Source of the DNA: a virus
Lineage: Duplodnaviria; Caudoviricetes
Direction: 5' to 3' (one strand)
Length of the DNA: 64,000 nucleotides
IMG/VR virus record: IMGVR_UViG_3300035396_001032
Coordinates: 17,214 to 81,213 of that record
A model generated the notes under the pieces. It saw only the letters and a list, made by a program, of their open reading frames with translations. It made no database searches and was not told the DNA's origin. This document shows, in pieces, positions 3 to 21,062 of the stretch (positions within the stretch are counted from its first letter, which is position 1; each line of letters opens with the position of its first letter). Both the position numbers and the translations under genes were made by a program.

Positions 3-3000
3 GCTGTTGGTAGTGCAAGTCTTGTTGAAATGGATTCAAATACCTCATGTGCTGCAGACCTTAGAATTAAATTAACATCTAATGATGCTTGTGGTACTGG
101 TATTGCAATTGTTAAGACCAGAGGTGAATTAACTACAACAGATGGTGTTGAAACAGGTGATGAACTCGGACATATTTGGTTTAGGTCACGTGTAGCAGAT
201 ACTGGTGTTACAAACAATTCAATTGTAAGTAAATATACAGGTACTGGTTTGCTTGGTTCATATGATGGAGATTTATTGTTTAATACCGCAACAAATTCAT
301 TTCCAACTGAGAAAGTAAGAATCACAGCAGGTGGTAATACTGGTTTCGGCATTAGCGGAGCGACAGCAGTAATTCATCTTAAAGCAGGTACAAGTAGTAA
401 TGCTCCGTTGAAATTCACAAGTGGAACACTTCTTAGTAGTCCACAAACAGGAGCAGTGGAATTTTTAGGTAATAAATATTATGGTACTACAACTGGTAAT
501 ACCAGAAATACATTTGCTTTCTTAGAAAGTCCAGAATTCACTGGAACACCTGTGTTACCATTAACTACTGAATTGGGTAATGTTGTGCTTAATGATTATA
601 TATGGAATTCTGGTGGAACGAATAATCCATTATTAACACTTAAATCGGACTTCGATACGTTTACTGGTTCTACTGTTCCTTGGGATAATATTGATTTTAG
701 TGGTTCAACGCTTGCTGATTTAGAAACTCGTAATGCTGAAGATGTTAATATCAGTGTTCCGCATTGGGACAGCACAAATGTCGATGATTTTACAAATAAA
801 ATTGCAGACTATATCGAAGACACCCAAGGCAGTGGTAGGCTTAGTCCAGAAATTGTATTAAGTGGGTTAAATACGACAAATTTAATTGTTTTCAGTGGAA
901 CTGGTTATATTTCATATACTGGATATCATAGTATTATTACTTGGAGTGGTACTACTATTGATGTTAGTGAATATGTTGAAGGTACGTATTACGTATATGT
1001 TGATACTAACTCAGAAATTCAGATTTCAACAAGTAATCCTGATGGTATTCACAATATAAGATTAGGTTCATTCTTTTGGAGTGGCTCAATAATTGGTGGT
1101 ATTATTCAATGTGGTTGTGTTATTTTGAATTCACTTGCAAGAACAATTAATTTCTTCCTAAGATTAGGTTATTTTATATATGATGATGGAGGTAATATTG
1201 AATTAATGAGTGGTAATACTCGTAAAATCATTAGTTCACCATGTAAAGTACAGTTTGGATTACTTAATATTGATTTACCAGAAATCGGTGCAAATCAGGC
1301 AAGTAATCTTCAATATAAATACATCTATATTTCTGCTGACCAAGGAGTTGAAGTAAATTGGGCATTTGTCCGTTCAGGTGGTATCATACCAACGGGTAGA
1401 TGGAATGATGTGACTAAAAACAGTCACATTCCTTTGACTGGATATACTGTTAATTTCACCAGTGGAAGCACGATAATGACAAGTAGTTCAGACTTAACAT
1501 CGATAATATCTGTAGATAATTTTATATATTTATCTGGTGATAGTCACACATATAGTATACCTATTACTGATGTTACTTGGACAGGTAGTCAAACCAATAT
1601 TTATTCGAATTTCACGTATTTGGGTTCAACAGGTAGTGGTACTGCAATTATCGATGCTTCACTACCACAAATTCCAAGCGGAAAATATGTAAAGTCTTTG
1701 GTAGTAAGAACTACTGATAGTCAATTAATATTTTTTCCTGCTCAAACGTATTATGATACCCAAGATGAGGCATTAAATGGTGTATTACCACTAATTCCAA
1801 CTCAGTTAAATCAAAATTCAATTAAAATGGCATATATTGTTAACGTTGCTGAAGAATTGGATTTAACTGGAAAAATATATGATATTAGACCATTACCTTT
1901 TCATGATAGAGAAGGTGGACAAAGTGGTGGTGGTACGACAATTACTAATCATGGTAGTTTAACTGGATTACTAAATGATGACCATCCACAATATTTACGA
2001 ACTGATGGTACAAGAGCATTGACTGGTATACAAAGTTATCAATCCCAGCCTACATTTAGTAATGATTTACAAATTATCACAAAAAAATATGTTGATGATG
2101 TTGATGTGTTAAAATTAGATAAAAGCATTTTTAATACATATACTGGTACAACTGTGCCAAATACTTATTTAACTATTAGTAATTTCAATACTTATAGTGG
2201 TACAACAGTACCTGCAACATATTTAACTATCAACAATTTTAATACTTATAGTGGGGCAACTGCAATTCTTATTGGAACAAAACAAGATACGATAACTGGT
2301 GCAGCAACTACGATTACAACATCGAATTTAACTATTGATAGAGCATTAATAAGTAACGGTAGCGGTAAAGTTGCTGTAAGTACAGTAACAAGTACTCAAT
2401 TAGGTTATGTTGCTGGAGTAACGTCTGCAATTCAAACACAATTAAATACTAAAGCACCACTTGCAAGTCCTGCATTAACTGGAACTCCAACAACACCAAC
2501 TGCTGCAGCAGATACAAGTACAACACAGATAGCAAGTACTGCATTTGTTGTTGGTCAGGCAAGTGCAATAAACCCTTTAATGAATGGTAGTGTTACAATT
2601 GGTACAAGTTTAAGATATTCACGTCAAGACCATGTGCATCCAGTAGATACTTCAAGGCAAGCAACAATAACTGGTGCTGCGACAACAATAACAACATCAA
2701 ACCTAACGACTGATAGAGTATTAATTTCTGACGGTAGTGGTAAGGTTGCTGTTAGTACAGTTACATCGACACAATTGGCTACAGTTTCTGCTCGTGTATA
2801 TGGTACAGAATATCAACTTGCTTCTGCATTGGCAAGTACAAGTACTAATAGTACAACACCTGTTGCTAAAGTAACTATGACAACAACTGATTTACCATCT
2901 GGTACATATAAAATTGTTGTACACTGGGTATGGTCAAGAAATAGTGCAGCAAACTCAGGAAGGTTTAATGTAACTATTGGTGGTGTTGCGCAAGGTACAA

Positions 3001-3173
3001 GAACAACAATGGAAATTGAGAACGGTGATACTACAGATATTCGTCCAGAAACCAGAATATTTTATAAGGCACTTTCAGGAGTTAATACTATTGTATTTAA
3101 CCATTGGGGTGAAAGTACTTCAAATAGTACAACAACATCAGATGCAACAATTGAATTAATACGAGTAGAATAA
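3..3173 (+). CDS. Tail fibre / long virion fibre protein, 5'-truncated by window edge
   Basis: Frame is open upstream of the ATG at 30 (AVGSASLVE-M). T/S/G-rich. Contains phage tail-fibre repeat APLASPALTGTPTTPT...QIASTAFV, HGSLTGLLNDDHPQYL motif and internal repeats. Confidence 0.8.
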   Translation, partial: AVGSASLVEMDSNTSCAADLRIKLTSNDACGTGIAIVKTRGELTTTDGVETGDELGHIWFRSRVADTGVTNNSIVSKYTGTGLLGSYDGDLLFNTATNSFPTEKVRITAGGNTGFGISGATAVIHLKAGTSSNAPLKFTSGTLLSSPQTGAVEFLGNKYYGTTTGNTRNTFAFLESPEFTGTPVLPLTTELGNVVLNDYIWNSGGTNNPLLTLKSDFDTFTGSTVPWDNIDFSGSTLADLETRNAEDVNISVPHWDSTNVDDFTNKIADYIEDTQGSGRLSPEIVLSGLNTTNLIVFSGTGYISYTGYHSIITWSGTTIDVSEYVEGTYYVYVDTNSEIQISTSNPDGIHNIRLGSFFWSGSIIGGIIQCGCVILNSLARTINFFLRLGYFIYDDGGNIELMSGNTRKIISSPCKVQFGLLNIDLPEIGANQASNLQYKYIYISADQGVEVNWAFVRSGGIIPTGRWNDVTKNSHIPLTGYTVNFTSGSTIMTSSSDLTSIISVDNFIYLSGDSHTYSIPITDVTWTGSQTNIYSNFTYLGSTGSGTAIIDASLPQIPSGKYVKSLVVRTTDSQLIFFPAQTYYDTQDEALNGVLPLIPTQLNQNSIKMAYIVNVAEELDLTGKIYDIRPLPFHDREGGQSGGGTTITNHGSLTGLLNDDHPQYLRTDGTRALTGIQSYQSQPTFSNDLQIITKKYVDDVDVLKLDKSIFNTYTGTTVPNTYLTISNFNTYSGTTVPATYLTINNFNTYSGATAILIGTKQDTITGAATTITTSNLTIDRALISNGSGKVAVSTVTSTQLGYVAGVTSAIQTQLNTKAPLASPALTGTPTTPTAAADTSTTQIASTAFVVGQASAINPLMNGSVTIGTSLRYSRQDHVHPVDTSRQATITGAATTITTSNLTTDRVLISDGSGKVAVSTVTSTQLATVSARVYGTEYQLASALASTSTNSTTPVAKVTMTTTDLPSGTYKIVVHWVWSRNSAANSGRFNVTIGGVAQGTRTTMEIENGDTTDIRPETRIFYKALSGVNTIVFNHWGESTSNSTTTSDATIELIRVE
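2130..2261 (+). repeat. In-frame tandem 54-bp (18-aa) repeat, about 2.5 copies
   Basis: FNTYTGTTVPNTYLTISN / FNTYSGTTVPATYLTINN / FNTYSGAT starting at 2130, 2184, 2238. Confidence 0.9.
2280..2777 (+). repeat. Dispersed 123-bp (41-aa) duplication in fibre gene (2280-2402 and 2655-2777)
   Basis: KQDTITGAATTITTSNLTIDRALISNGSGKVAVSTVTSTQL vs RQATITGAATTITTSNLTTDRVLISDGSGKVAVSTVTSTQL, 36/41 aa identical, many synonymous differences. Confidence 0.9.
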
Positions 3174-6899: not shown

Positions 6900-9800
6900 A
6901 TGGAAATGGATAAACAAAAGGTCTTGGGAGAAATCAAAGGATTTCTCGAAGGCTACAACAATGACTTGAAGTATTTGGTTAACGTTGAGACCGACCCAAG
7001 GAATAATATTGCTGAGTGTATTATTCATGAACCCAATCAGAAGCCAAAAACAATAAATGTCAAGTACGAACCTTTCATGTATATGAAAGATTTGGAAAAA
7101 CTTGGATATAAATTGTATAGTGGCAGAGTTGATGGTATCGAAGAAAGTAAAAGGATAAAGTATGGCATCAAAATCACCAAGTTAAAGACTGGTAACCAGA
7201 AAAGATTGGTTGATGGTTACTGCTATAAGGTGACGAGTAGTAGGTCGTATAATGACATCACGAGTTACTTCAGGGATGGTGGTATTGACCCCTATGCAAA
7301 ACTAACTGATGAAAGTGGCGAATACGTTAAAGATAAGAAGGGTGACCCGATTTTCTTATACAGAGATTGTTTTTATTCACCAAGAACTACTGAACAATTC
7401 TTTATTTCCACACAATCCAGATTATTTAAGGGATATGAAGAATATAAAAACGTTCACAAGCTAACCTTTGACATTGAAACCACTGGTTTACGTTATCAGA
7501 TAGCGAGAATCATTTTGATTGGTGTCAGGGATAATAGAGGCTTTGAAACCATTCTTGAACCAGCCAAATTAAATGATGATGAATCTGAAATAAGGATGAT
7601 TCAAGACTTCTTTAATTTGATTAATCATTTACAACCTGCAGTAATTTCTGGATATTTCAGTGAAACATTTGACTTTGACTTTATCTTGGGTAGAGCAAAG
7701 ATATTAAAAATGCAACTCGATGAAGTTCCAACAAGTCTTAAAGAAGGATATCATTTAAAACGAAGAGGTAATGTATCGGTAAAGTATGGTAATACTGCCG
7801 ACAAATATACAGCAACCGAAATGTGGGGGTACTCTGTAATTGATATTCTCCACGCTGCAAAACGTACTGCATCAGTTAACTCTGATTTGAAAGAAACTGG
7901 TTTAAAGTATGTATCTAAATTTGAAAAGATTGCCAAGCCAAACCGAACATATATTGAGGGAGAAGATGGTGCAATTGGTAAATATTATCTCGAAAATAAA
8001 ATCTTCTTAATTAACGATAAAAACGAATATGTTCAAGTGCCTGATGAATATCAGGATGTTGCTAAGTGCCTGTATAAACTTCAGGTTAATAAAAACATTA
8101 TTGGCGATGAAGAATATAAAAGATTAAGAGGTCAATGTCTTAATCAGTCAAAGGTATTTGTAGACTGGTTCAGAACTGAGGCACTACCAAAGGGTATGAT
8201 AAACTTTATTGGTGGTAAAAAACTTGTTAAGCAATACTTGCTCGATGACTTGTGGGAAACCGAACATGTTGATGAACTCTACAATCAGTCATCATTCATG
8301 TTGGCAAAGATTGTGCCTACCACATATCAGCGTATATGTACGATGGGAACTGCTGCGGTTTGGAACTTATTGTTGACTGCTTGGAGTTATGAAAACGACT
8401 TGGCTATTCCACAATCAGATAAATATGAGAAGTTTAGTGGTGGATTGGCAAGATGTTTCAAGACTGGATATACAAAAAGGATTAAAAAGATTGACTACGC
8501 TTCACTGTATCCAATGATTCAGTTGACTGAAGGTGTCTTCCCGATTTTTGACATAACAGGTGTTATGAAGAAATTGTTGTTGTATTTAACAACCACTCGT
8601 AACATTTACAAGAAGTTAGCTAAAAAGAAAAAATTGAATGAAGAAGAGGTCATATTGTTGAAAGAAATTGACCCTGAAATCTACATCAAATACATAAATA
8701 ATGCGTTGACTCAGGCAGAAATTTTAATGTCTGAAATCAAACAGTTGCCTATCAAGATTTTGAATAACTCATTGTTTGGTGCGTTGGGTTCAAATATCAG
8801 TTTCAACTGGTCTGATAACGTATGTGCTGCAAGAATTACTTGTGTCGGTAGATTACACCTAAGACATGGTATTGATTGGTTTAGTAAATATGGATTGGTT
8901 GCACTGCTTGCAGTTACTGACGGTATAAACTTCCATATACCAGATACGACTACAATTAGAGTAACTGATGATGGTGTACTTTATGACCAACCAGAAGGTC
9001 TTATTGAAGACATGTGGAAGTATGATGGTCAAGTAGGTGTTCAAGCACTTATCAAAAAGTACAACAGGGAAGAAATGAAAGCACCATATATGAGTGTTGA
9101 TGATGATGGTGATAGTATTTCATGTTTAAACCTTTCACGTATCAACTATGGTTCATTGGCACTTGTTAAAGACAAGAAAACTGGTGAGTTGAAGGAAAAG
9201 ATTAAGTTGACAGGTAATACCATTAAATCAAAGGTAATGCCAGAATATATTGAAACTTTTATTGATAAGGGTTTGGATATGATTCTTCATGGGCAAGGCA
9301 AGGAATTCGTGGAATATTACAACAGTTATGCTGAAGATATTCGTTACATGAGAATTCCATTGAAGAAAATTGCGAGTAAAAGTAAGATTAAGATAAGTTT
9401 AAAGTCATATAAAAACAGGGGTAGTGATAAAAACGGTAAGGATAAAGCTGCCCAAGCACACATGGAATTGTTAATCCAGAAACGTGAGGCAATCGTAAGG
9501 GACTTGTTTGAAAAACATAAATCAGAATTTAATCTTGAAAAGATTAAAAACGTTAATGACATTGATGTAATGGCTAAATTGGTTGCCAATTATATGCCAC
9601 AAGAACCTGAATTGGATAGCGTTGTGTATTATGTTAACGTAGGTACTATGAAATCACATGGTGATGTGAAGAAAGACACAAAAACTGGTGAAGTGGTATT
9701 GCGTTGCGAATTAATTAGTGCAAAAGACCTGCAGGATAATCCGAATATGACAGGTACTTACAATTATAAAAAATATCTTGCAGCATTTAATACGAGAGTT

Positions 9801-10565
9801 GAAACCCTATTAGTAGGGTTTGACGAAGAAACTCGTAAAAAAATGCTTGTCAAGATAAATAAGCAAGGTGAGTTAAAAAAATTCGAATTCAATCCATTGC
9901 ACAATGAATTGGAGTTGAAGAATTTTGATTCTGACAATTATGATGAAGCAATGCACTTAGAAGATTTGGAAGTTGATTTCTGGAATAAAACTGGTTATGA
10001 CCCAAGAAATATTTGGAATGGCTTTAAAATGCGTGACGAATATAATGTTCACTATGAAATTTATCAGAACGCTTTGGACTTCCTTAATGAAAAGATGGTA
10101 GCAAGTGGTAAACCTAAAATTAAATCAATCAATGATGATTATAGTAATGGTGATTTAGTATTAGTTAAAGATGGTAGTGAATATCACGTTGGTTTATATA
10201 ATGACGTTTATATTCAGGTAGTTAGAAGCAATGTTGATATACCTAAAAGCGAAGTTGAATTAGAACTTGATAGAATCCGAGAAGAAAATCAGAAGAAAAT
10301 TGACGATTTGGGAGAAAGTGAACTTACAGTCAAAACTGATAGAGATTTATTCTTAGAATCTAAAGCCAAGAAACAATCACAATATTTTATTGAATTTAAA
10401 CAGGCATTCAACATTGACTTGACATATACTATGGAAAAATTGTTTGCAGATATTCCCGAAGCAAAGGGTGCATTCGAAACATTCATGGAAAGTAATGATG
10501 CTGCTGTTGATGACGAGGCAAGTGAATATTTAGATGTTGATGATGGTGGGGATGGTGCATATTGA
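6900..10565 (+). CDS. polB: Family B DNA polymerase with 3'-5' exonuclease domain
   Basis: ExoI FDIETTG, ExoII GYFSETFDFD, ExoIII YLLDD, motif A DYASLYP (8493), motif B KILNNSLFG (about 8754-8780), motif C variant AVTDG (8910-8924). Confidence 0.93.
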   Translation: MEMDKQKVLGEIKGFLEGYNNDLKYLVNVETDPRNNIAECIIHEPNQKPKTINVKYEPFMYMKDLEKLGYKLYSGRVDGIEESKRIKYGIKITKLKTGNQKRLVDGYCYKVTSSRSYNDITSYFRDGGIDPYAKLTDESGEYVKDKKGDPIFLYRDCFYSPRTTEQFFISTQSRLFKGYEEYKNVHKLTFDIETTGLRYQIARIILIGVRDNRGFETILEPAKLNDDESEIRMIQDFFNLINHLQPAVISGYFSETFDFDFILGRAKILKMQLDEVPTSLKEGYHLKRRGNVSVKYGNTADKYTATEMWGYSVIDILHAAKRTASVNSDLKETGLKYVSKFEKIAKPNRTYIEGEDGAIGKYYLENKIFLINDKNEYVQVPDEYQDVAKCLYKLQVNKNIIGDEEYKRLRGQCLNQSKVFVDWFRTEALPKGMINFIGGKKLVKQYLLDDLWETEHVDELYNQSSFMLAKIVPTTYQRICTMGTAAVWNLLLTAWSYENDLAIPQSDKYEKFSGGLARCFKTGYTKRIKKIDYASLYPMIQLTEGVFPIFDITGVMKKLLLYLTTTRNIYKKLAKKKKLNEEEVILLKEIDPEIYIKYINNALTQAEILMSEIKQLPIKILNNSLFGALGSNISFNWSDNVCAARITCVGRLHLRHGIDWFSKYGLVALLAVTDGINFHIPDTTTIRVTDDGVLYDQPEGLIEDMWKYDGQVGVQALIKKYNREEMKAPYMSVDDDGDSISCLNLSRINYGSLALVKDKKTGELKEKIKLTGNTIKSKVMPEYIETFIDKGLDMILHGQGKEFVEYYNSYAEDIRYMRIPLKKIASKSKIKISLKSYKNRGSDKNGKDKAAQAHMELLIQKREAIVRDLFEKHKSEFNLEKIKNVNDIDVMAKLVANYMPQEPELDSVVYYVNVGTMKSHGDVKKDTKTGEVVLRCELISAKDLQDNPNMTGTYNYKKYLAAFNTRVETLLVGFDEETRKKMLVKINKQGELKKFEFNPLHNELELKNFDSDNYDEAMHLEDLEVDFWNKTGYDPRNIWNGFKMRDEYNVHYEIYQNALDFLNEKMVASGKPKIKSINDDYSNGDLVLVKDGSEYHVGLYNDVYIQVVRSNVDIPKSEVELELDRIREENQKKIDDLGESELTVKTDRDLFLESKAKKQSQYFIEFKQAFNIDLTYTMEKLFADIPEAKGAFETFMESNDAAVDDEASEYLDVDDGGDGAY

Positions 10566-10574
10566 TATTATTAA

Positions 10575-10583
10575 GTATTTATA
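10575..10583 (+). promoter_or_regulatory. GTATTTAT phage promoter motif
   Basis: GTATTTATA 24 nt before ATG 10599. Confidence 0.7.
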
Positions 10584-10598
10584 TGAAAATGTGCACAG

Positions 10599-11219
10599 AT
10601 GAAATTAAAAAAGAAAGACTTACTTGAAATTATCGATTCAAATGGTGAGTTAATTGGTAATAGTGCTGTTCCAACAAGTGGTAGTGACTTGGAAAGTGCT
10701 GCCAGCAATACTACTGACAATAATGCTAAGATAGGTCAACAACCCTTCAGATATGACATGTTGGGTCGCTTTGGCTTTACACTTATGCCATTCATGGAAG
10801 GTAAGGAAAATCAGGGTCAACAAGAACAAATTAAAGATTGGACTGAACTCATGTACGAAATGTACATGAAAACCTTAGAGTATTATTACAGAAATCCAAA
10901 TAAACTAAAATCTGAATTCAGAATTCTTTCAAAAAAAGAAGAAGAAAATCCTTCAAATGAACGCACAAAAATTGAGGATTTTTGGGCAAAAGTAATTATT
11001 GATATAGTTGAGTCACACATTAAGAAGAGTGTAAAACCAATTGATGAAGCAGCAGTTGTTGAAGACAAGGTAGTTGATAAGAAAGGCGAGGATGAAATAT
11101 CAAATAAGTCTGAAGATAAAGAAGTTAGAGAAAAGAAAATCGAAAAAATTGCTGGTTTGATTAACAAACTGGAGAAAAAAGATATTGATAAGCTAATTAA
11201 TTTGTTGGAGAACAAGTAA
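10599..11219 (+). CDS. Hypothetical protein, charged, possibly head-associated
   Basis: 206-aa ORF after the motif; K/E-rich C-terminus. Confidence 0.75.
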   Translation: MKLKKKDLLEIIDSNGELIGNSAVPTSGSDLESAASNTTDNNAKIGQQPFRYDMLGRFGFTLMPFMEGKENQGQQEQIKDWTELMYEMYMKTLEYYYRNPNKLKSEFRILSKKEEENPSNERTKIEDFWAKVIIDIVESHIKKSVKPIDEAAVVEDKVVDKKGEDEISNKSEDKEVREKKIEKIAGLINKLEKKDIDKLINLLENK

Positions 11220-13989: not shown

Positions 13990-13998
13990 GTATTTATG
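13990..13998 (+). promoter_or_regulatory. GTATTTAT phage promoter motif
   Basis: GTATTTATG 25 nt before ATG 14015, directly after a terminator. Confidence 0.7.
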
Positions 13999-14014: not shown

Positions 14015-16900
14015 ATGACATACGCAGAATTTCTTGAAAATATCTTAAGTGAACTACTTAAAATCAACTCATTTGCAGGTAGAATAAAATTTGCTGATGG
14101 AAACTTACAAAGAATTGGTAGTGGTAGTGGTAGAATCGTTTATGATATTGATGGTCAGAAAGTTCTAAAGCTGGCTAAAAATCCTAAAGGTGTTGCACAA
14201 AATGGTGCAGAAATGGATACTGGTCGTTATCAAGATACTCAACATATTGTTACAATTGTTTATGAAAGTGCTGATGATAATGCGTGGATAATTTCAGAAA
14301 AAGCAAAAAAAGTTACTGAAAGAAGAATAAAAGAACTTACAGGTATTCCAAGTCTTAGTGACCTATATTACTTTCTCAGTAATTATGAGTCACAAGCTAA
14401 GGGTCGTAGACCAATTCATCGTCAAGACCAAGAACTAACAGATTTTTTCTGGGAAAATGAATTTGCAACACAGATTGGCGATTTGATTGCTAATTACAGT
14501 CAACACGCAGGTGACATGGGAAGACCAAGTACATATGGTGAAGTACTTCGTGATGGTCAACCATCAATCGTTCTAACTGATTATGGTCTAAGTGATGAAG
14601 TGTATTCATCACACTATGAAAGAAAACCCAATAAATATCAAATGTATGAAATGTATAACTTTGCCGATGGCAATGATGATATGCTTTCAGACATTGGTAA
14701 TGTTGGTCAAGACCAAAGGCGTGGAATGTGGGCATTAATTCCACAAGGTGTGGGCGATGGTGATGAACCAATGAATGAAGAATTCATTGACTATGTTCAA
14801 AACAGAAATAAATATCCTGAAAAACGTTTACCTAATCTACCATTCTTAGCTGACAAGTTCAATGAATGTGTAAATAATATCAAAGAAACCCTTAACGTTG
14901 TTGAAAACAAAAAATTGTTTTACAATAACTTATTGGAACTTCAAGATTACCTTGTTTCCCAGAAGTTTTATGAGAAAGAACAACTAAATCATGAGGAATA
15001 TGTTATTAATGAAGCCGATGTTCCTGATGTTCAAATGTTTAGTTTATCTGACGCAAATTATGCAACGAATATGGCAAATATCGTTGCACAGAAATTAGGA
15101 TTAACTACTCCGAAATTATTAGGTAAGGGCGAAAATGGTTTTGCATTTGAAATCAATGATAATTTGGTGTTAAAACTAACTGCAGATGTTAGTGAAGCAG
15201 ATGCTGGAATAAAACTAATGAGAGGAAACCCAAAATATCTTCCCGAAATTTTTAACATATATAAAATTGTTGATACTGAAGCGAATAAAGCATATTTTGG
15301 ATTACTTGAAGAAAATATTAATGAAAAACCACTCGAAAGATTTAGAAAATTTGATGAAGACCTTGCATTGATATTCCCAAATCAAGGACTTAATATGTTT
15401 TATAAGCCAATGAGAAGAAATTTTGATTATAACACATTGGCTGAAAAGGCGAAGGAAATTCTAACAGCTAATCCAGAAGCAAATGTTTCAGAACCCGACA
15501 GAAAAGCTGCATATGATTACGTCATTGGATTGCTGAACATCAAACAAGAAATGGATAACTTTAGTATTAAGTCAAATGACTATACCGTAATAGCAAATCT
15601 TGGATATAAAAATGGTGTTCTTAAATATTTTGACGTAGGTGGTCGTATGGGTACTCCTGAACCACCAATTGACGATAATAATCTATTATATATTCCCGAA
15701 GATGCTACTTCTAAGTTCTCAACTATTGATTCAATAGGCAGGGATGATTTTCCAGTGTATGATAATAACGATACATCACCAATGACTGATAATAATATCA
15801 GAACTAATGAAGATTTAGAATATCGTCATGCAAGTGATGCAACTCAAGATAAATATACGATTGACGAACTTGTTGAAAGGGTTTTGTCATCAATGGCGGG
15901 GAGCAGTACTGTTAATGTAAAAAAAAAGTGTAAGTTAGGTGGTCAAGGTAATACAAGTGCTGCTTGTAATCAGGGTGATATCAGTAACTTAGATATTAAA
16001 CCACTTACTGAAGCATCAATTCCATATAATAAAACTTATTGGGGATGGGTATCACCAAGCAATGAATTTATTCAAGTTCCACAACTACAACATGCAGAAT
16101 ATATTCGAACTAAATACCCAAATCTTTTCATGCTTGACGATGTATTTGAACAAGCATTTAAAGATGGTTGGGTAAGAGTTATATATCAATATTATCAAGA
16201 TAGATTCTCTGGTAGTTTATCAATTAATGGTTACGATAAGAAACGTGTGAAACACGTGTTGAAAACCATGTTTTTTGACAGCATTAAATATGGTGATAAT
16301 CAAATATATTTGGCATATGAAAATCCTGATGGTGGTGACATGTTCAGAACCAATAGTGCAGATAATAAAGCAAAACTGGCGAGTTATATATCTGAAAACG
16401 TTTTAAATGAAACTGGTGAGGGCAATGCTCAACCATATGATGTTACGATTAAAAGAAGTGATGATTATAAAAAGGAATATTCGTTTCGAACCGAAGATAA
16501 TGATTATTATGAAATCATATTTAACGAACAATCATTAGGTGATAATAAATGGTATGTTGCATTTGGTACTAAAGATGCTGATACCGACCATTATAATTTC
16601 AATGTTGTTGTGAATAAAGGCAAGCTATATAGAGTAATGGCAACCTTATTAAAGGTGATGAAAGGCTTCATTGCTAATACAAAACCAGTTAGCATTGAAA
16701 TTGAACCCACAAAAAGAAATACGATGCATGTGCAAGATAGAGGAAGATTTAAACTATATTTGCAATATATTAAGAAAAATTTACCACCTGATTATGAATT
16801 TCTCGAAACTCATGATGCAATCTTCATAGAGAAGAAGAGAGGTGTTAGTGAAACACAATTAATATTAAATAATATTAATGAGGCTAAATTATTATTGTAA
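14015..16900 (+). CDS. Multidomain protein with two protein-kinase-like domains plus unknown C-terminal modules
   Basis: Kinase 1: IGSGSGRIVY (14117), VLKLA, QNGAE, HAGD, LTDYG (14579). Kinase 2: LGKGENGFAF (15122), VLKLT, SEA, SND..IANLG, YFDVG (15632). Confidence 0.75.
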   Translation: MTYAEFLENILSELLKINSFAGRIKFADGNLQRIGSGSGRIVYDIDGQKVLKLAKNPKGVAQNGAEMDTGRYQDTQHIVTIVYESADDNAWIISEKAKKVTERRIKELTGIPSLSDLYYFLSNYESQAKGRRPIHRQDQELTDFFWENEFATQIGDLIANYSQHAGDMGRPSTYGEVLRDGQPSIVLTDYGLSDEVYSSHYERKPNKYQMYEMYNFADGNDDMLSDIGNVGQDQRRGMWALIPQGVGDGDEPMNEEFIDYVQNRNKYPEKRLPNLPFLADKFNECVNNIKETLNVVENKKLFYNNLLELQDYLVSQKFYEKEQLNHEEYVINEADVPDVQMFSLSDANYATNMANIVAQKLGLTTPKLLGKGENGFAFEINDNLVLKLTADVSEADAGIKLMRGNPKYLPEIFNIYKIVDTEANKAYFGLLEENINEKPLERFRKFDEDLALIFPNQGLNMFYKPMRRNFDYNTLAEKAKEILTANPEANVSEPDRKAAYDYVIGLLNIKQEMDNFSIKSNDYTVIANLGYKNGVLKYFDVGGRMGTPEPPIDDNNLLYIPEDATSKFSTIDSIGRDDFPVYDNNDTSPMTDNNIRTNEDLEYRHASDATQDKYTIDELVERVLSSMAGSSTVNVKKKCKLGGQGNTSAACNQGDISNLDIKPLTEASIPYNKTYWGWVSPSNEFIQVPQLQHAEYIRTKYPNLFMLDDVFEQAFKDGWVRVIYQYYQDRFSGSLSINGYDKKRVKHVLKTMFFDSIKYGDNQIYLAYENPDGGDMFRTNSADNKAKLASYISENVLNETGEGNAQPYDVTIKRSDDYKKEYSFRTEDNDYYEIIFNEQSLGDNKWYVAFGTKDADTDHYNFNVVVNKGKLYRVMATLLKVMKGFIANTKPVSIEIEPTKRNTMHVQDRGRFKLYLQYIKKNLPPDYEFLETHDAIFIEKKRGVSETQLILNNINEAKLLL

Positions 16901-16951
16901 AATAATAGACCCGTTTAGAATATTTCGTGCACTTCTATACTATTTATATTT

Positions 16952-17779
16952 ATGGGAAACAAATGGAATGATTTGGAAATAAATTTACTAAGAAGCATTT
17001 ATTCTGAAACAAATGATGCTGATATAATTACTTATTTTAGTGGACGAACATTAACATCAATTAAAGTTAAGGCAAAAAGATTAAAGTTTTATCGTAATGT
17101 TGATGTTAAAGCATCTAATAGACGTAGTGCAAGTACTGGTGAAAAAAATGGCATGTATGGAAAATCGTCAAAGATAAGTGGCAAAACATATGATGATTAT
17201 TATGGTGTTGAAAAATCAAATTCCATAAAAAAAAAGCTGTCTATAGATAAAATTGGTAAAATTGGTTTGGCTGGCGAAAAAAATGGTATGCATGGGAAAA
17301 TACCACACAATAAAGGTATTTCACCAAATGAAACAATAAAACTGAAAATTAAAAGAGGTATTATTGACTATTGGAATAATTTAAATGAAATAGATTTAAA
17401 AAAAAGAAAAGATAAATTAAGAGAAGATTGGATTATTAAAAGGGATAAATATTCGGAAATCGATACATTACCTGAAAAAATTGCAGAAAAATTATTAATT
17501 AAGTTGTGTTTAACATATCAAAAAAAAATAAACATTGGTTATTATAATTGTGACTTTGTAGTTAATGATACAATTCTTGAAGTTCAAGGAGATTATTGGC
17601 ATGGCAATCCTGAGTTTTATAATTCGTTTGATAGTATACAAGAAAAAAATATTAATCGTGATAGAAGAAAATTAAATTATTTACAATCAAAAGGATTTAA
17701 AATAATATATTTGTGGGAAAATGATTTAAAAAAGAATCTCGATTATTGTGAAAAAACATTAATAAAAGAATTAAAATGA
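16952..17779 (+). mobile_element. Free-standing putative homing endonuclease (Myb/HTH + NUMOD3-like repeats + Vsr/DUF559-like nuclease)
   Basis: Two GEKNGM(Y/H)GK repeats; C-terminal CDFVV...ILEVQGDYWHGNP...RDRRK..YLQSKGFKIIYLWENDL; lower G+C than flanks in spot counts (13/60 at 17401-17460 vs 23/60 at 18301-18360). Confidence 0.75.
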
Positions 17780-19602
17780 GTAATATACAAGACTTTATAT
17801 TAAATATAAGACAAAAGTTATTTATTAAATCACTAATAACTGATTTAAAATCAGACATTTATGTTGTGGGTGGAGCAACCAGAGACCTTATACTAAATAA
17901 GCCCAATAAGGATATTGACTTAATTGTTCGAAATGTGCCAATAGATATATTAATTGCACATCTACAAAAATTTGGTAGAGTAGATGCTGTTGGTAAATCA
18001 TTTGGTGTACTTAAGTTTATTGATTCTGATGGACTTGACTATGATATAGCATTACCTCGTAAAGAAATGCCAAACGGTGAAGGCGGTTATCGTGGTTTTG
18101 ATGTTCAAAGTGATGAAAATCTGCCAATTGAAGACGACCTAATCAGAAGGGACGCTAAACTGAACGCAATGGCAATTAGTATTAATAGTGGAAAATTTAT
18201 TGACCCATTGGGTGGTTTGGATGATATCAAAAATAAATTAATATCTGCTGCCAATCCAGATGCATTTAGTGACGACCCATTGAGAATGATTCGGATGGTG
18301 GCTTTCGCAAGTCGTTTTGGTTTTACAATTGAGCCAGAGACTATGCAAATGATAATCGATAATGCACATCGTGTAAAAGAAATTGCACCTGAAAGAATTT
18401 TGACTGAATTTGATAAAATAATCAAAAAGGGTAATAAATTGACAGGTGTTGAGTTGCTTGCAAATACAGGTTTATTTAAGCAGATATTTGGTAATGAAAT
18501 CAAGCCTTCAATGCTTGGTCGTAGAGATTTTGACGGTGTGCGAACTATGGGTGAATTTATATTTCTTATGACATATGGAGTTGTGCAGCATCCTGCTGCA
18601 TTTTTCAAGGAGAAACTAAAGGGTGATATTGATTCATTCAAAGAGATTAAAGCACTTGAACAGGCATTTGATAACGCCAGTGCAGAAAACAGTATTGTTG
18701 CAAGAACTATTGCACACAATATGTTTGTTATTTCACCACCATCGTTACAAAGCCAGATACTGCCAACTGCAATTGAAACTGCAGCACAGGAATTACTTCA
18801 GGGTAAATACCCAAAGACTGTGAATGAACTTGCTTTAAATGGTAATGACTTAATGCAATTAGGATTAAAGGGTAAGGAGATTGGTGATGCACAAAAAATG
18901 ATGTTATTGAAAATCTATTCAGATATTGTTGAAAATAATAAAGAAGATTTACTATCTTTGTTGGGCAAAAATGATGTCAATGAATATGGATTCTCTGAAC
19001 CTAAAAATTCTTGGGAAGCTGATGGTCAGGAAGTTAATGTAGACTTCTTTATCGAAAAATATGACCAATGGAATCAAGGTGAGAGATTCAGAGACCCTTC
19101 AAAAGAGTCTGTTTTACGATTCTTCGAAGACGAATTTGTTGAATTAGTTGGTGATGAAAAGCTAAGACAAGAATTGCTCTGGGCATTGACAGATAGGGAT
19201 GTACTTAACGAAAACGTTGAAATGAATAATATTGCATATACTGGTATCGTTCTTGATGAAACATCAAAACAGAAACTTATTAAGGTTTTCAGTAAAATGA
19301 TACCCGAAGGTTGGGAAGTTATTGCACATCATATGACTTTGAACTTAGGTGCAATTGATTCTAAATATGTGCAGGATTTGGATAAGGAAATCGAACTAAC
19401 TGTTGTTGATTATGCGATAGATGATAAGGTTATGGCAGTTGGTGTGGATGGCTACCCAACTAACAACAAGAAAGCACACATTACCTTAGCAGTTAATAGG
19501 CAGGGTGGCGGTAAGCCAATGATGTCAAACAGTTTAACTGAATGGAGACCAATTGAGTTTCCGCTTGTATTGAAAGGAATTGTAACTCAAGTAAGAAAAT
19601 AA
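17776..19602 (+). CDS. cca: Class II CCA-adding/tRNA nucleotidyltransferase fused to C-terminal 2H phosphoesterase
   Basis: YVVGGATRDL...KDIDL (DxD), RRDAKLNAMA, FSDDPLRMIR, PERILTEFDK. C-terminal HHMTL (about 19327) and HITL (19477) are the paired HxT motifs of 2H enzymes. Confidence 0.88.
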   Translation: MSNIQDFILNIRQKLFIKSLITDLKSDIYVVGGATRDLILNKPNKDIDLIVRNVPIDILIAHLQKFGRVDAVGKSFGVLKFIDSDGLDYDIALPRKEMPNGEGGYRGFDVQSDENLPIEDDLIRRDAKLNAMAISINSGKFIDPLGGLDDIKNKLISAANPDAFSDDPLRMIRMVAFASRFGFTIEPETMQMIIDNAHRVKEIAPERILTEFDKIIKKGNKLTGVELLANTGLFKQIFGNEIKPSMLGRRDFDGVRTMGEFIFLMTYGVVQHPAAFFKEKLKGDIDSFKEIKALEQAFDNASAENSIVARTIAHNMFVISPPSLQSQILPTAIETAAQELLQGKYPKTVNELALNGNDLMQLGLKGKEIGDAQKMMLLKIYSDIVENNKEDLLSLLGKNDVNEYGFSEPKNSWEADGQEVNVDFFIEKYDQWNQGERFRDPSKESVLRFFEDEFVELVGDEKLRQELLWALTDRDVLNENVEMNNIAYTGIVLDETSKQKLIKVFSKMIPEGWEVIAHHMTLNLGAIDSKYVQDLDKEIELTVVDYAIDDKVMAVGVDGYPTNNKKAHITLAVNRQGGGKPMMSNSLTEWRPIEFPLVLKGIVTQVRK

Positions 19603-19603
19603 T

Positions 19604-20110
19604 ATGGCAGATTGGAAAGAATCATCTAAACTTGGTTTTGATTTTGAAGATTTTTGTTTGAAAGATATTAACGAAAAGGTTAATCCACTTGCATATAGAA
19701 ATCAGATTAAAAGTGAATATAGCTTTTATGATATAATACTTCATGATGGTAATTTTGCTGAAAATCATCAACAAAAAACTATTGAATGTAAGTTTGATGA
19801 AAAGGCTAATGAAACTGGTAATATTTGTATTGAAACTGGTTGTAATGGTAGATTGTCTGGATTATTGATTACGAAAGCTGATTATTGGCAGATTGGCGAT
19901 GGATTTCAAATGTTTTTAATTAAAACGGATATGATTAGGACATGTATCAACAATCATCCAAATGAAATTCAATATAAAAGGAAATATCCAGTAACACAGG
20001 AAGATGGTGTTACAAAAGATATGACATTTTATTTAATACCTAAACGATTATTTATTGAATATTGTTTAGAGGTTGCTGGAATTAATGATATGACATATAA
20101 AGATTTATGA
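19604..20110 (+). CDS. PD-(D/E)xK restriction-endonuclease-fold protein
   Basis: GFDFED...YDIIL...TIECKFD...TGNICIE...SGL..TKADYW pattern of small phage PD-(D/E)xK nucleases. Confidence 0.65.
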   Translation: MADWKESSKLGFDFEDFCLKDINEKVNPLAYRNQIKSEYSFYDIILHDGNFAENHQQKTIECKFDEKANETGNICIETGCNGRLSGLLITKADYWQIGDGFQMFLIKTDMIRTCINNHPNEIQYKRKYPVTQEDGVTKDMTFYLIPKRLFIEYCLEVAGINDMTYKDL

Positions 20111-20673
20111 TTAAAAGATTAGTAGCATTTGACTTTGACGGAACACTGATGAATTCTCCTGAACAAGAGAATGGCATACAGTTATGGCAAGATAAAATGG
20201 GTTACCCATATCCACATAAAGGCTGGTGGGGCAGACCTGAAAGCCTTGACTTAGATGTTTTTGACATCAGACCGTTTCCAAGCGTGCTGAAACAATTAGA
20301 AAAAGAGGTTTCAACACCAGATACTTATGTGATAATATTAACATCACGTATGGAAAAGTTACGCCCACAACTCGAAGCAGTCTTAAATAAAAACAATATT
20401 CGTGTTGATAAGGTTGACATGAAGCGTAGTGAAAGAACGAAGGGTGAGAAAATTTTAAGGTATTTAGAAGAGTTTCCAAGCATTGAAGAGATTAATGTAT
20501 ATGATGACCGTGATACAGATATTCAGTCATATGAGGGTATTCGTAACATGATTCCTAAAAACATAGTATTTAATATATACTTGGCTGCAAGTGGTAGTCT
20601 ATCATTGCTTGAAGCCAAAAATAAAATAGTTACCATTGTAAATGAGGTGATTTCGAGTTTTATAAAAAAATAG
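20107..20673 (+). CDS. HAD-family phosphatase (Swiss-Army-Knife RNA-repair-like HAD)
   Basis: LVAFDFDGTL (motif I), ILTSR (II), TKGEK (III), VYDDRD (IV); HKGWWGRPESL segment typical of this HAD clade (by eye). Confidence 0.85.
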   Translation: MIKRLVAFDFDGTLMNSPEQENGIQLWQDKMGYPYPHKGWWGRPESLDLDVFDIRPFPSVLKQLEKEVSTPDTYVIILTSRMEKLRPQLEAVLNKNNIRVDKVDMKRSERTKGEKILRYLEEFPSIEEINVYDDRDTDIQSYEGIRNMIPKNIVFNIYLAASGSLSLLEAKNKIVTIVNEVISSFIKK

Positions 20674-20677
20674 TAAT

Positions 20678-21046
20678 ATGAAAAAAGTATTAATTCCCGA
20701 AGATAATGACATGAATTTCTATCTGTTTACTGAAATGTTGAACGAATTTGATATTGAATTAATTCAGGTAAAAAATGGCTTACAGGCGGTGGAATATTGT
20801 GATAAGTATTCAGATGTTTGTTTAATACTAATGGATATTAATATGCCAGTAATGGGTGGAGAAGAGGCTGCGGTTATTATCAAACAAAGACATCCAGAAA
20901 TTCCAATAATATCACAAACAGCATATAGTGTTTATGGTGCAGTTTCTGAGAAAAATAAAAGTTGTTTTGCACAATTCATTGAGAAACCAATTAATATTGA
21001 GGGATTAAAAGCTATTATTAGGAAATATTGTTTCGATGAAAAATAA
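20678..21046 (+). CDS. Stand-alone response-regulator receiver (CheY-like)
   Basis: LIPEDN (acidic pair), LILMDINMPVMGG (phospho-Asp), IISQTA (Thr), IEKPI (Lys-Pro). Confidence 0.9.
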   Translation: MKKVLIPEDNDMNFYLFTEMLNEFDIELIQVKNGLQAVEYCDKYSDVCLILMDINMPVMGGEEAAVIIKQRHPEIPIISQTAYSVYGAVSEKNKSCFAQFIEKPINIEGLKAIIRKYCFDEK

Positions 21047-21053
21047 AACATCT

Positions 21054-21062
21054 GTATTTATA
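21054..21062 (+). promoter_or_regulatory. GTATTTAT phage promoter motif
   Basis: GTATTTATA 23 nt before ATG 21077. Confidence 0.7.

Follow-up and report, generated by a model that had tools for sequence, protein, structure and literature searches.

Why would a phage fuse an enzyme that completes tRNA 3' ends to a phosphoesterase, and keep a phosphatase close by? The question is raised by a 64,000-nt stretch of the IMG/VR record IMGVR_UViG_3300035396_001032 (positions 17,214-81,213; the window hereafter). In this window a CCA-type tRNA nucleotidyltransferase (NTase) is fused to a very small 2H phosphoesterase (mini 2H), and a HAD phosphatase is encoded just downstream. We think it likely, judging from sequence and modelled folds, that the three form a tRNA 3'-end heal-and-rebuild module of a huge (~300-kb) phage, which would also serve the routine CCA completion of the phage's tRNAs.

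In the mechanism that we propose, the mini 2H would open the 2',3'-cyclic phosphate on the 3' end of a clipped RNA, most likely to a 2'-phosphate, as CNPase and the CPD domain of Trl1 do. The HAD_SAK_1 phosphatase would remove the remaining monophosphate. The fused class II NTase would then restore the missing C, C and A. The same NTase would complete the CCA of the phage's own tRNAs, and probably that of its transfer-messenger RNA (tmRNA) too. Such a module would need no RNA ligase. The substrates, the order of the steps and any link to host defence are what we infer here.

The window is part of a contig of 81,213 bp, ~27% of the genome according to CheckV. A helicase, a DNA polymerase, SbcCD-like genes, a baseplate wedge gene and tail-fibre genes mark it as phage DNA. 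Nearly all of its genes lie on the plus strand, and its open reading frames (ORFs) are open under translation table 11. A pattern scan of IMG/VR yielded 80 related loci, the longest contig measuring 372 kb, and the 70 non-redundant ones were used for counts. Gene order was read by phmmer, comparing the window's proteins with all ORFs of these loci. Five relatives are complete (G001-G005, 327-372 kb), two of them with terminal repeats. A megablast search with window positions 17000-21000 found no match in the phage collection. The best protein match among phage records is LR756504.1 (636 kb), which has the NTase alone (388 aa).

An NTase, a mini 2H and a HAD phosphatase

The trio is made up of the following parts.

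17776..18969, plus strand: class II CCA-type tRNA NTase (head, neck, body and tail), residues 1 to ~398 of a 608-aa ORF; Pfam, NCBIfam and Foldseek
18994..19200, plus strand: linker module, residues ~407-475, a beta-hairpin and three helices between disordered joints at 398-410 and 475-486
19231..19602, plus strand: mini 2H phosphoesterase, CNPase/CPD-like, ~125 aa, with H519-x-T and H568-x-T; fold and weak Pfam match
20107..20673, plus strand: HAD_SAK_1 phosphatase, 188 aa, with DxDGT, T79, K112 and D134; Pfam PF10307

The plus-strand ORFs of this region run from 17776 to 19602 (608 aa), from 19604 to 20110 (168 aa) and from 20107 to 20673 (188 aa), just as an earlier, sequence-only reading of the window had placed them. 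That reading had assigned the front of the 608-aa protein to the class II NTases from its DxD, RRD and DDPLR motifs, and the assignment holds. Motifs A (D46/D48), B (R124-R125-D126), D (D166-D167-x-x-R170) and E (R207/E211/K214) are invariant in 18 full-length relatives. The head matches Pfam PolyA_pol (PF01743) at residues 28-156 (E 8e-21, 75.1 bits vs a cut-off of 23) and the neck PolyA_pol_RNAbd (PF12627) at residues 182-238 (E 6e-17, 61.7 bits vs 22). The RRDAKLNA version of motif B had been called atypical. It does depart from the form RRDF(T/S)INA, but RRDAKxNA is normal for this clade; RRDF(T/S)INA or RRDITINA is kept in 4 of the 18 relatives.

The ranking of models favours a tRNA-directed enzyme of predicted CCA-adding specificity. 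The top NCBIfam model is NF009814 (Bacillus-type CCA tRNA nucleotidyltransferase), which aligns residues 27-398 with model positions 22-392 of 396 at 141 bits. PcnB reaches 87 bits and the A-adding model 72 bits. The structure 1miv comes first both by PDB sequence (E 3e-25) and by Foldseek (E 8e-18, TM score 0.70, 413 columns). In sequence and fold alike, the CCA-adding enzymes 1miv, 3h37 and 6ibp outrank the A-adding enzymes and poly(A) polymerase. Motifs A-E align with those of 1miv, and the flexible loop between A and B is about equally long. The tRNA-binding tail corresponds to tRNA_NucTran2_2, with up to 40.7 bits in the relative P0015.

Poly(A) polymerase was tried as an identity for the NTase and rejected as unlikely, because the protein fits CCA-adding models and structures better, and along the full length. 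A wider form of this idea is that the NTase is not directed at tRNA, being either a poly(A) polymerase or an enzyme that tags other RNAs or proteins, as predicted for polyvalent Pol-beta NTases. The idea can draw on motifs A-E, which CCA-adding enzymes and poly(A) polymerases share, on the variant motif B (RRDAKxNA) and on the equivalog cut-offs, all of which are missed. Yet we regard it as highly improbable: the CCA-adding matches run from head to tail and include the tRNA-binding tail, PcnB and PAP score lower, and the phage group has many tRNA genes without CCA.

The linker module that the sequence-only reading had noted between NTase and 2H proved to be a real folded domain. Its ~70 residues are modelled with pLDDT (the per-residue model confidence) of 84-94, against <50 in the flanking joints, and it occurs in 34 of the 70 loci. 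A fold search with it gave weak matches to small winged-helix-like or S17e-like domains, at Z ~5 and within the range of noise. Both disordered joints of the 608-aa protein have a triplet [LIV]-x-E (VNE at ~403, LNE at ~478) that most relatives keep, a three-residue motif and as such a lead only.

The mini 2H had been proposed from the strings HHMTL and HITL, which contain H519-x-T521 and H568-x-T570. H519, T521 and H568 are invariant in the 18 relatives, and T570 is at least 90% conserved; in a second, mini-2H alignment, at least 90% of the sequences keep the first His. Residues 510-589 match the Pfam family tRNA_lig_CPD (PF08302) with E 9e-4 and 19.2 bits, which is under the gathering cut-off of 23. 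Relatives pass this cut-off (27.4 bits in P0097; best E 5.7e-8). The domain is best described as a distant, miniaturised relative of tRNA_lig_CPD.

The fold agrees with the proposed fusion. Searches were made with a model of residues 405-608 (pLDDT 88). VIA-align superposes mouse CNPase (2xmi_A) with Z 13.6 and a root-mean-square deviation of 2.0 Å over 126 aligned residues, covering residues 480-608. The next 2H matches, at Z 5.6-7.3, are a Deinococcus CPDase, a Burkholderia phage phosphodiesterase, an Arabidopsis CPDase, Acb1 and LigT, and ranks 1-9 are all 2H enzymes bar one protein of unknown function. Foldseek agrees (E 1e-4): its top 46 matches are CNPase except for the fungal Trl1 KIN-CPD entry 6u05. 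A mini-2H profile found nothing significant among PDB sequences (best interferon gamma, E 0.24). Hence the 2H assignment rests on the motifs, the weak Pfam match and the fold.

Enzymes of the CNPase/Trl1-CPD clade open a 2',3'-cyclic phosphate to a 2'-phosphate and leave a 3'-OH. For a CNPase/CPD-like mini 2H, the expected path would thus lead from the cyclic phosphate through a 2'-phosphate to OH. The route through a 3'-phosphate, which the sequence-only reading had drawn, is not the one to which the domain points.

Exhaustive profile searches collect 2229 cluster representatives of the mini-2H family, and many relatives encode the domain in a stand-alone gene of ~127 aa. Some members have company. 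P0207, P0221, P0225, P0239 and P0257 (~300-400 aa) combine an N-terminal Walker A motif with a C-terminal mini 2H, an arrangement like a miniature CNPase or Trl1 KIN-CPD; five members of this protein set match AAA_33. P0002, P0014, P0015 and P0030 have a second 2H of the LigT/Acb1 type between the NTase and the linker and mini 2H, which the window's protein does not have. P0002 is a close relative, with 85% identity across the NTase.

The DxD HAD phosphatase that had been seen downstream of the fusion is confirmed as HAD_SAK_1 (PF10307, 28.7 bits vs a cut-off of 25.6), a family whose Pfam entry names 'Swiss Army Knife RNA repair proteins'. To be precise, it is the second gene after the fusion, with a 168-aa gene intervening. 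All four HAD motifs are present. Among 25 relatives D9, D11, R81, K112 and D134 never vary, at least 90% keep T79, and an insert GWWGRPESLD is conserved. The protein weakly matches phrog_415 'polynucleotide kinase' (E 2e-6). A HAD profile gave nothing significant among PDB sequences (best Pnkp1 4xrp, E 0.09).

Linkage of the trio and the RNA ligases

Do these three enzymes belong together? Co-occurrence in related phages had been named as a check on the idea, and NTase, 2H and HAD are all present in 60 of the 70 loci. The conserved order is 961-aa protein, NTase, variable inserts, mini 2H, optional 168-aa gene, HAD and 276-aa protein. In 26 loci the mini 2H and the NTase form one fusion; in 37 more the mini 2H lies downstream of the NTase, and in 1 it lies upstream. 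For the HAD, 59 loci have it downstream of the NTase and 2 have a fusion. A contig end truncates five of the ten exceptions. The true exceptions are L001, L073 and L077, together with L081, which is without HAD, and L067, in which no 2H is detected. The complete genomes G001-G004 each have exactly one mini 2H and one HAD, both adjoining the NTase.

Most loci are syntenic relatives. Therefore fusions, and the loci L078 and L080 with their different context, serve as independent evidence of linkage. The order 2H-NTase-HAD occurs in L080, P0085, P0097, P0109, P0164, P0191, P0231 and P0268, and in the first four of these as a single chain of ~700 aa. L008 has a fusion of NTase, linker, 2H and HAD. 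P0163, P0254 and P0272 combine 2H and HAD without the NTase, and P0218 and P0219 combine 2H and NTase. L078 and L080 are without the flanking 961-aa and 276-aa genes, and in both a tRNA cluster is only 3-5 kb away from the trio. The single-chain gene of L080 stands between a cluster of seven tRNAs and a gene for RlaP, the RNA-ligase-associated Pol-beta NTase (9797-10903, 111-3154; RlaP match 68.5 bits), with a UvdE-like endonuclease gene nearby.

The fusion partners of the mini 2H, seen in 47 multidomain proteins, are the NTase (19), HAD_SAK_1 (5) and PNK-like AAA_33 kinases (5), and also ART-PolyVal and GNAT. None of the 47 proteins scanned has an RNA ligase domain. A functional link of NTase, 2H and HAD is supported by their co-occurrence and by their fusion in several orders.

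The sequence-only reading had called the path ligase-independent, as no RNA ligase is in the window. This stands in part. No RNA ligase family is found in the window's contig, which spans ~27% of a genome, and all three families are likewise missing from G004, whose NTase shares 64% identity with that of the window. However, four of the five complete relatives encode ligases elsewhere: Rnl1/Rnl2 in G002, G003 and G005, and RtcB alone in G001. The ligases of G002, G003 and G005 lie tens to hundreds of kb from the trio, and never beside it. Judged by its genes, the module itself is ligase-independent, whereas the phages are mostly not ligase-free. G005 has no 2H or HAD beside its NTase; it encodes a divergent mini 2H (E 3e-10) at G005:C1:183351-183632, within ~10 kb of Rnl2 and Rnl1 (172-192 kb).

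These ligases suggest another role for two of the enzymes. The 2H and the HAD could be the 3'-healing half of a ligase-dependent repair of anticodon loops (T4 Pnkp/Rnl-like), with the ligases encoded elsewhere and the NTase next door doing a separate job. Fusions of kinase and 2H exist in the mini-2H family, and a survey of jumbo phages lists, in the sections that we draw on, 2H enzymes and HADs of the Swiss-army-knife type as partners that clear ends for ATP-grasp ligases (Iyer, Anantharaman, Krishnan, Burroughs and Aravind 2021, PMC7824862). We nevertheless hold this role to be very unlikely. The trio of G004, the closest complete relative, comes without any of the three ligase families. RtcB joins 2',3'-cyclic phosphate or 3'-phosphate ends directly, and the RtcB of G001, its only ligase, needs no healing. 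Ligases are never near the trio or in a chain with the mini 2H, the block is without a P-loop 5'-kinase by Pfam, and the fusion partner is an NTase and not a ligase.

tRNA genes and possible sources of damaged ends

If the heal-and-rebuild module works on tRNA, then tRNAs should be at hand. A search of the rest of the genome for tRNAs and RNA ligase had been suggested, and its outcome is divided: the contig holds neither, but the complete relatives have ligases in four of five cases and 36-65 tRNA matches each. In the tRNA arrays of three complete relatives CCA is encoded by 9 of 141 tRNA genes; the other 132 are without it. As nearly all tRNA genes lack an encoded CCA, CCA completion would be a standing need of this phage group, damage or not, and the NTase would have routine work on phage tRNAs. 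Each of the three arrays also contains a full-length tmRNA (L082 8756-9121; L085 8328-8693, minus strand; L086 6011-6373; Rfam RF00023, 69-105 bits).

What the tRNA genes encode in place of CCA follows a pattern. The arrays L082-L087 of G001, G004 and G002 hold 138 genes with a good acceptor stem. Position 74 is C in 130 of them (94%). Only 12 have C at position 75, against 83 with A and 35 with T, and position 76 is A in 108. The triplet at 74-76 is CAA in 69 genes, CTA in 20 and CCA in 9. C74 is encoded but C75 avoided, in genomes with ~33% GC. L078 and L080 together have C74 in 9 of 10 tRNAs. The C74 bias could possibly signal 3' trimming to stop, define a cut site, or reflect an NTase that requires C74. 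ARAGORN also finds tRNAs with a CTA anticodon (amber suppressor type) in two complete relatives (L083; L087 11386-11463), and TAG may be a sense codon in some phages of this group.

A C in 94% of the genes at position 74, followed by an avoided C75 (CAA or CTA), would fit a dedicated cut after C74. This leads to a bolder pair of ideas, which we consider unlikely. Either the trio is the obligatory 3'-maturation route for the phage's 36-65 tRNAs and its tmRNA, in which a possibly cyclizing nuclease cuts after C74, the end is healed and CA is added. Or the block around the trio is a giant polyprotein that is cut at [LIVM]-x-E joints, packaged and injected, and that pre-empts immunity directed at tRNA 3' ends.

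Several observations weigh against the heal-and-rebuild module that we prefer. Its first step needs tRNA tails that end in a cyclic phosphate, and RNase P, RNase Z and RuvC-type nucleases leave a 3'-OH, so that no source of such tails is evident. Self-cleaving ribozymes would be one, but when tRNA arrays of three complete relatives (103 kb) were scanned with Rfam 15, only tRNAs and tmRNA came up, although theta-type ribozymes may be unmodelled in Rfam. The contig itself, with ~27% of the genome, has no tRNA gene. The NTase falls below every NCBIfam equivalog cut-off (141 bits vs 290 for NF009814), and that it adds CCA and not CC, A or poly(A) is not established, since this specificity rests on the ranking of models. 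L073, L077 and L001 keep an NTase with neither 2H nor HAD. Hence the NTase is independent of the other two. Adjacency of the three in the 70 loci is partly shared ancestry. Finally, in close relatives the NTase is followed by an inserted second 2H of the Acb1/LigT-like kind or by an ADP-ribosyltransferase, a hint of other uses in counter-defence.

The surrounding block and known systems

What else is encoded around the trio? By its domains and fusions, the trio lies inside a larger conserved and variably fused block that resembles a polyvalent protein. The other features of this block are the following.

13990..13998, plus strand: recurrent upstream motif GTATTTATG, 24 nt before the start of the 961-aa gene; next copy at 21054-21062, before the 276-aa gene
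14015..16900, plus strand: 961-aa protein with two truncated kinase-like domains and further modules; phmmer and Atlas leads
16952..17779, plus strand: endonuclease gene, 275 aa, with a Vsr/DUF559-like C-terminus; weak Pfam matches to MTES_1575, DUF559 and Vsr; phrog_13076 'endonuclease'
19604..20110, plus strand: optional 168-aa gene between the 2H and HAD genes, with a PD-(D/E)xK-like signature; phrog_13596 (function unknown)
20678..21046, plus strand: stand-alone, canonical-looking response-regulator receiver (Rec) gene directly 3' of the HAD gene; Pfam Response_reg 58.5 bits
21077..21907, plus strand: 276-aa protein with a DGHHR (ParB/Srx-like) motif, the last member of the conserved block

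In 39 of the 70 loci the 961-aa protein and the NTase form one in-frame fusion, and in 22 the 961-aa protein lies upstream of the NTase. These fusions give ORFs of 1400-2700 aa, and in many relatives the module would be one stretch of a giant multi-enzyme ORF. For the 961-aa protein Atlas gives the leads Phage_T7_kinase, Pkinase and Kinase-PolyVal at 0.92-0.94, and Pfam gives weak matches to Salyut and DUF6934. Its short, conserved micro-modules KCKLGG...ACNQGD and DIGNV..RRGMWA recur at the N-terminus of P0083, an NTase-2H relative, as if they were portable joints or targeting signals.

The endonuclease gene sits exactly between the 961-aa and NTase genes and overlaps the start of the NTase by 4 nt. 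It is found at this position only in the window, L003, L019 and L025/L027, and most other loci have one continuous ORF here. It looks like a putative free-standing homing endonuclease that split a giant gene. The 168-aa gene is present in 22 of the 70 loci and always between 2H and HAD. In its product E15, E61-x-K63, D65, N73 and E77 are invariant and D43 is nearly so; it has no match in Pfam or among PDB sequences. It may be a PD-(D/E)xK-like nuclease, a candidate from the motif alone, and as such a second mobile nuclease gene or an accessory nuclease.

Downstream of the HAD, a Rec gene is found elsewhere only in L028 and L059. Divergent 'cRec' domains have been tied to cyclic-phosphate processing and RNA ligases in the part of the jumbo-phage survey that treats them (Iyer et al. 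2021, PMC7824862). The 276-aa protein follows the HAD in 61 of the 70 loci. It has no Pfam match, and its Atlas leads are ART-PolyVal (0.83, weak, in the C-terminal part) and ParB_N (0.76).

The upstream motif occurs throughout the window. For GTATTTAT[AGT] there are 23 matches where 6.2 are expected, 22 of them on the plus strand, with sites for example at 13990, 21054, 26300, 31608 and 59820; at the sites checked it lies ~23-25 nt before a start codon. It precedes genes of DNA metabolism as well as virion genes, and GTATTTAT is probably a promoter element of the phage. No copy lies between 13998 and 21054. As the copies bracket 14015-21046 with none between them, this segment is probably one transcription unit.

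Such company invites a different view of the 2H and the HAD. The NTase would only mature phage tRNAs, and the other two would degrade immune signals or toxic nucleotides (2',3'-cyclic nucleotides, cyclic oligonucleotides or ADP-ribose derivatives), adjoining the NTase because the block collects counter-defence enzymes. We judge this to be quite unlikely, even though the block does have the make-up of a polyvalent protein and relatives carry an extra Acb1/LigT-like 2H, ART-PolyVal (35.5 bits in P0034) or GNAT after the NTase. The fold search with the mini 2H does return Acb1 (7t27), but at Z 6.7, far from the 13.6 of CNPase, and the Pfam match is to the CPD family of tRNA ligases and not to Acb1. 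Where an Acb1-like 2H is present, as in P0002, it is an addition and no replacement. In favour of this view, roles as RNases or against signals have been proposed for polyvalent 2H domains because these were never seen with RNA ligases (Iyer et al. 2017, PMC5512222, as far as its sections on these domains go). Against it, the mini-2H family pairs with PNK-like kinases, as CNPase and Trl1 do. Moreover, 2H and HAD are fused to the NTase in several orders, and they persist beside tRNAs and RlaP where the context is different.

How does the heal-and-rebuild module relate to systems that are already known? Its parts are not new. The 2021 survey, in the sections that we use, counts a CCA-adding enzyme, 2H phosphoesterases and stand-alone Swiss-army-knife HADs among the RNA-repair parts of jumbo phages (PMC7824862). 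These sections treat the three separately, with 2H and HAD as helpers of RNA ligases, and they do not describe a conserved ligase-free unit of NTase, 2H and HAD. On a CCA enzyme with a 2H in phages, our literature search returned only this survey and a paper on the structure of E. coli LigT. It found no paper on the unit of NTase, mini 2H and HAD as such, with a prior description in Burroughs and Aravind 2016 not excluded. What appears to be new, by this comparison with the literature, is the conserved ligase-free trio with its multiple fusion orders.

The nearest likeness in architecture is to polyvalent proteins. Their listed domains, in the portion of the 2017 paper that concerns us, include truncated kinases, ARTs, GNATs, Pol-beta NTases, 2H and ParB-like domains (Iyer et al. 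2017, PMC5512222). The ORFs of 1400-2700 aa in our relatives likewise string together kinase-like domains, NTase, ART-PolyVal or GNAT, and 2H. In contrast, the paper does not use the term 'CCA', that portion of it has neither a CCA-type tRNA NTase nor a HAD_SAK phosphatase among its domains, and in the window the block is split into separate genes.

T4 Pnkp and Rnl1 share with the trio that RNA ends would be healed by phage-encoded enzymes, and the PHROG 'polynucleotide kinase' that the HAD weakly matches contains the DxDxT phosphatase of the Pnkp type. Unlike the T4 pair, the block has no 5'-kinase and no ligase, and the end would be rebuilt by template-independent addition and not sealed. 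CNPase and the CPD domain of fungal and plant tRNA ligases are the best structural match to the mini 2H, and both are likewise fused to PNK-like P-loop kinases. The mini 2H is much smaller (~125 aa vs ~210), is often a stand-alone protein of 125 aa, and has a CCA enzyme and a HAD as partners where the CPD has a ligase. So small a 2H domain, from a large and uncharacterised family, and the structure-less HAD_SAK_1 family are attractive targets for enzymology.

Bacterial immunity provides possible reasons to repair tRNA 3' ends. Cas12a3 cleaves the CCA tail of tRNAs (PMC13594972), and toxSAS/CapRel enzymes pyrophosphorylate the CCA end (PMC9712102; bioRxiv 10.1101/2021.04.30.441581). If our reading is true, ligase-free clearing of 3' ends and rebuilding of CCA would be a matching counter-measure. 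The plainest reading is that CCA completion for dozens of phage tRNAs without CCA would explain why huge phages with large tRNA arrays have a CCA enzyme.

The closest functional parallel is Cca of the E. coli type (NF008137), a class II NTase with an HD domain. There, too, a CCA-type NTase is combined with phosphoesterases that clear blocked 3' ends. The HD domain of Cca is reportedly, in work by Yakunin and colleagues from 2004, a 2',3'-cyclic phosphodiesterase, a 2'-nucleotidase and a phosphatase. The chemistry predicted here would be the same: cyclic phosphate to 2'-phosphate to OH, followed by the addition of CCA. Unlike Cca, the phage proteins have no HD domain (no HD match in Pfam; NF008137 aligns at model positions 2-207 of 409, which is the NTase head only), and the ends would be cleared by two unrelated folds, a CNPase-like mini 2H and a HAD_SAK_1 phosphatase, fused or separate. 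By analogy, the module is a functional analogue of E. coli Cca and not a member of its family. If this is true, two unrelated enzymes would have replaced the HD domain of the bacterial Cca in the course of evolution.

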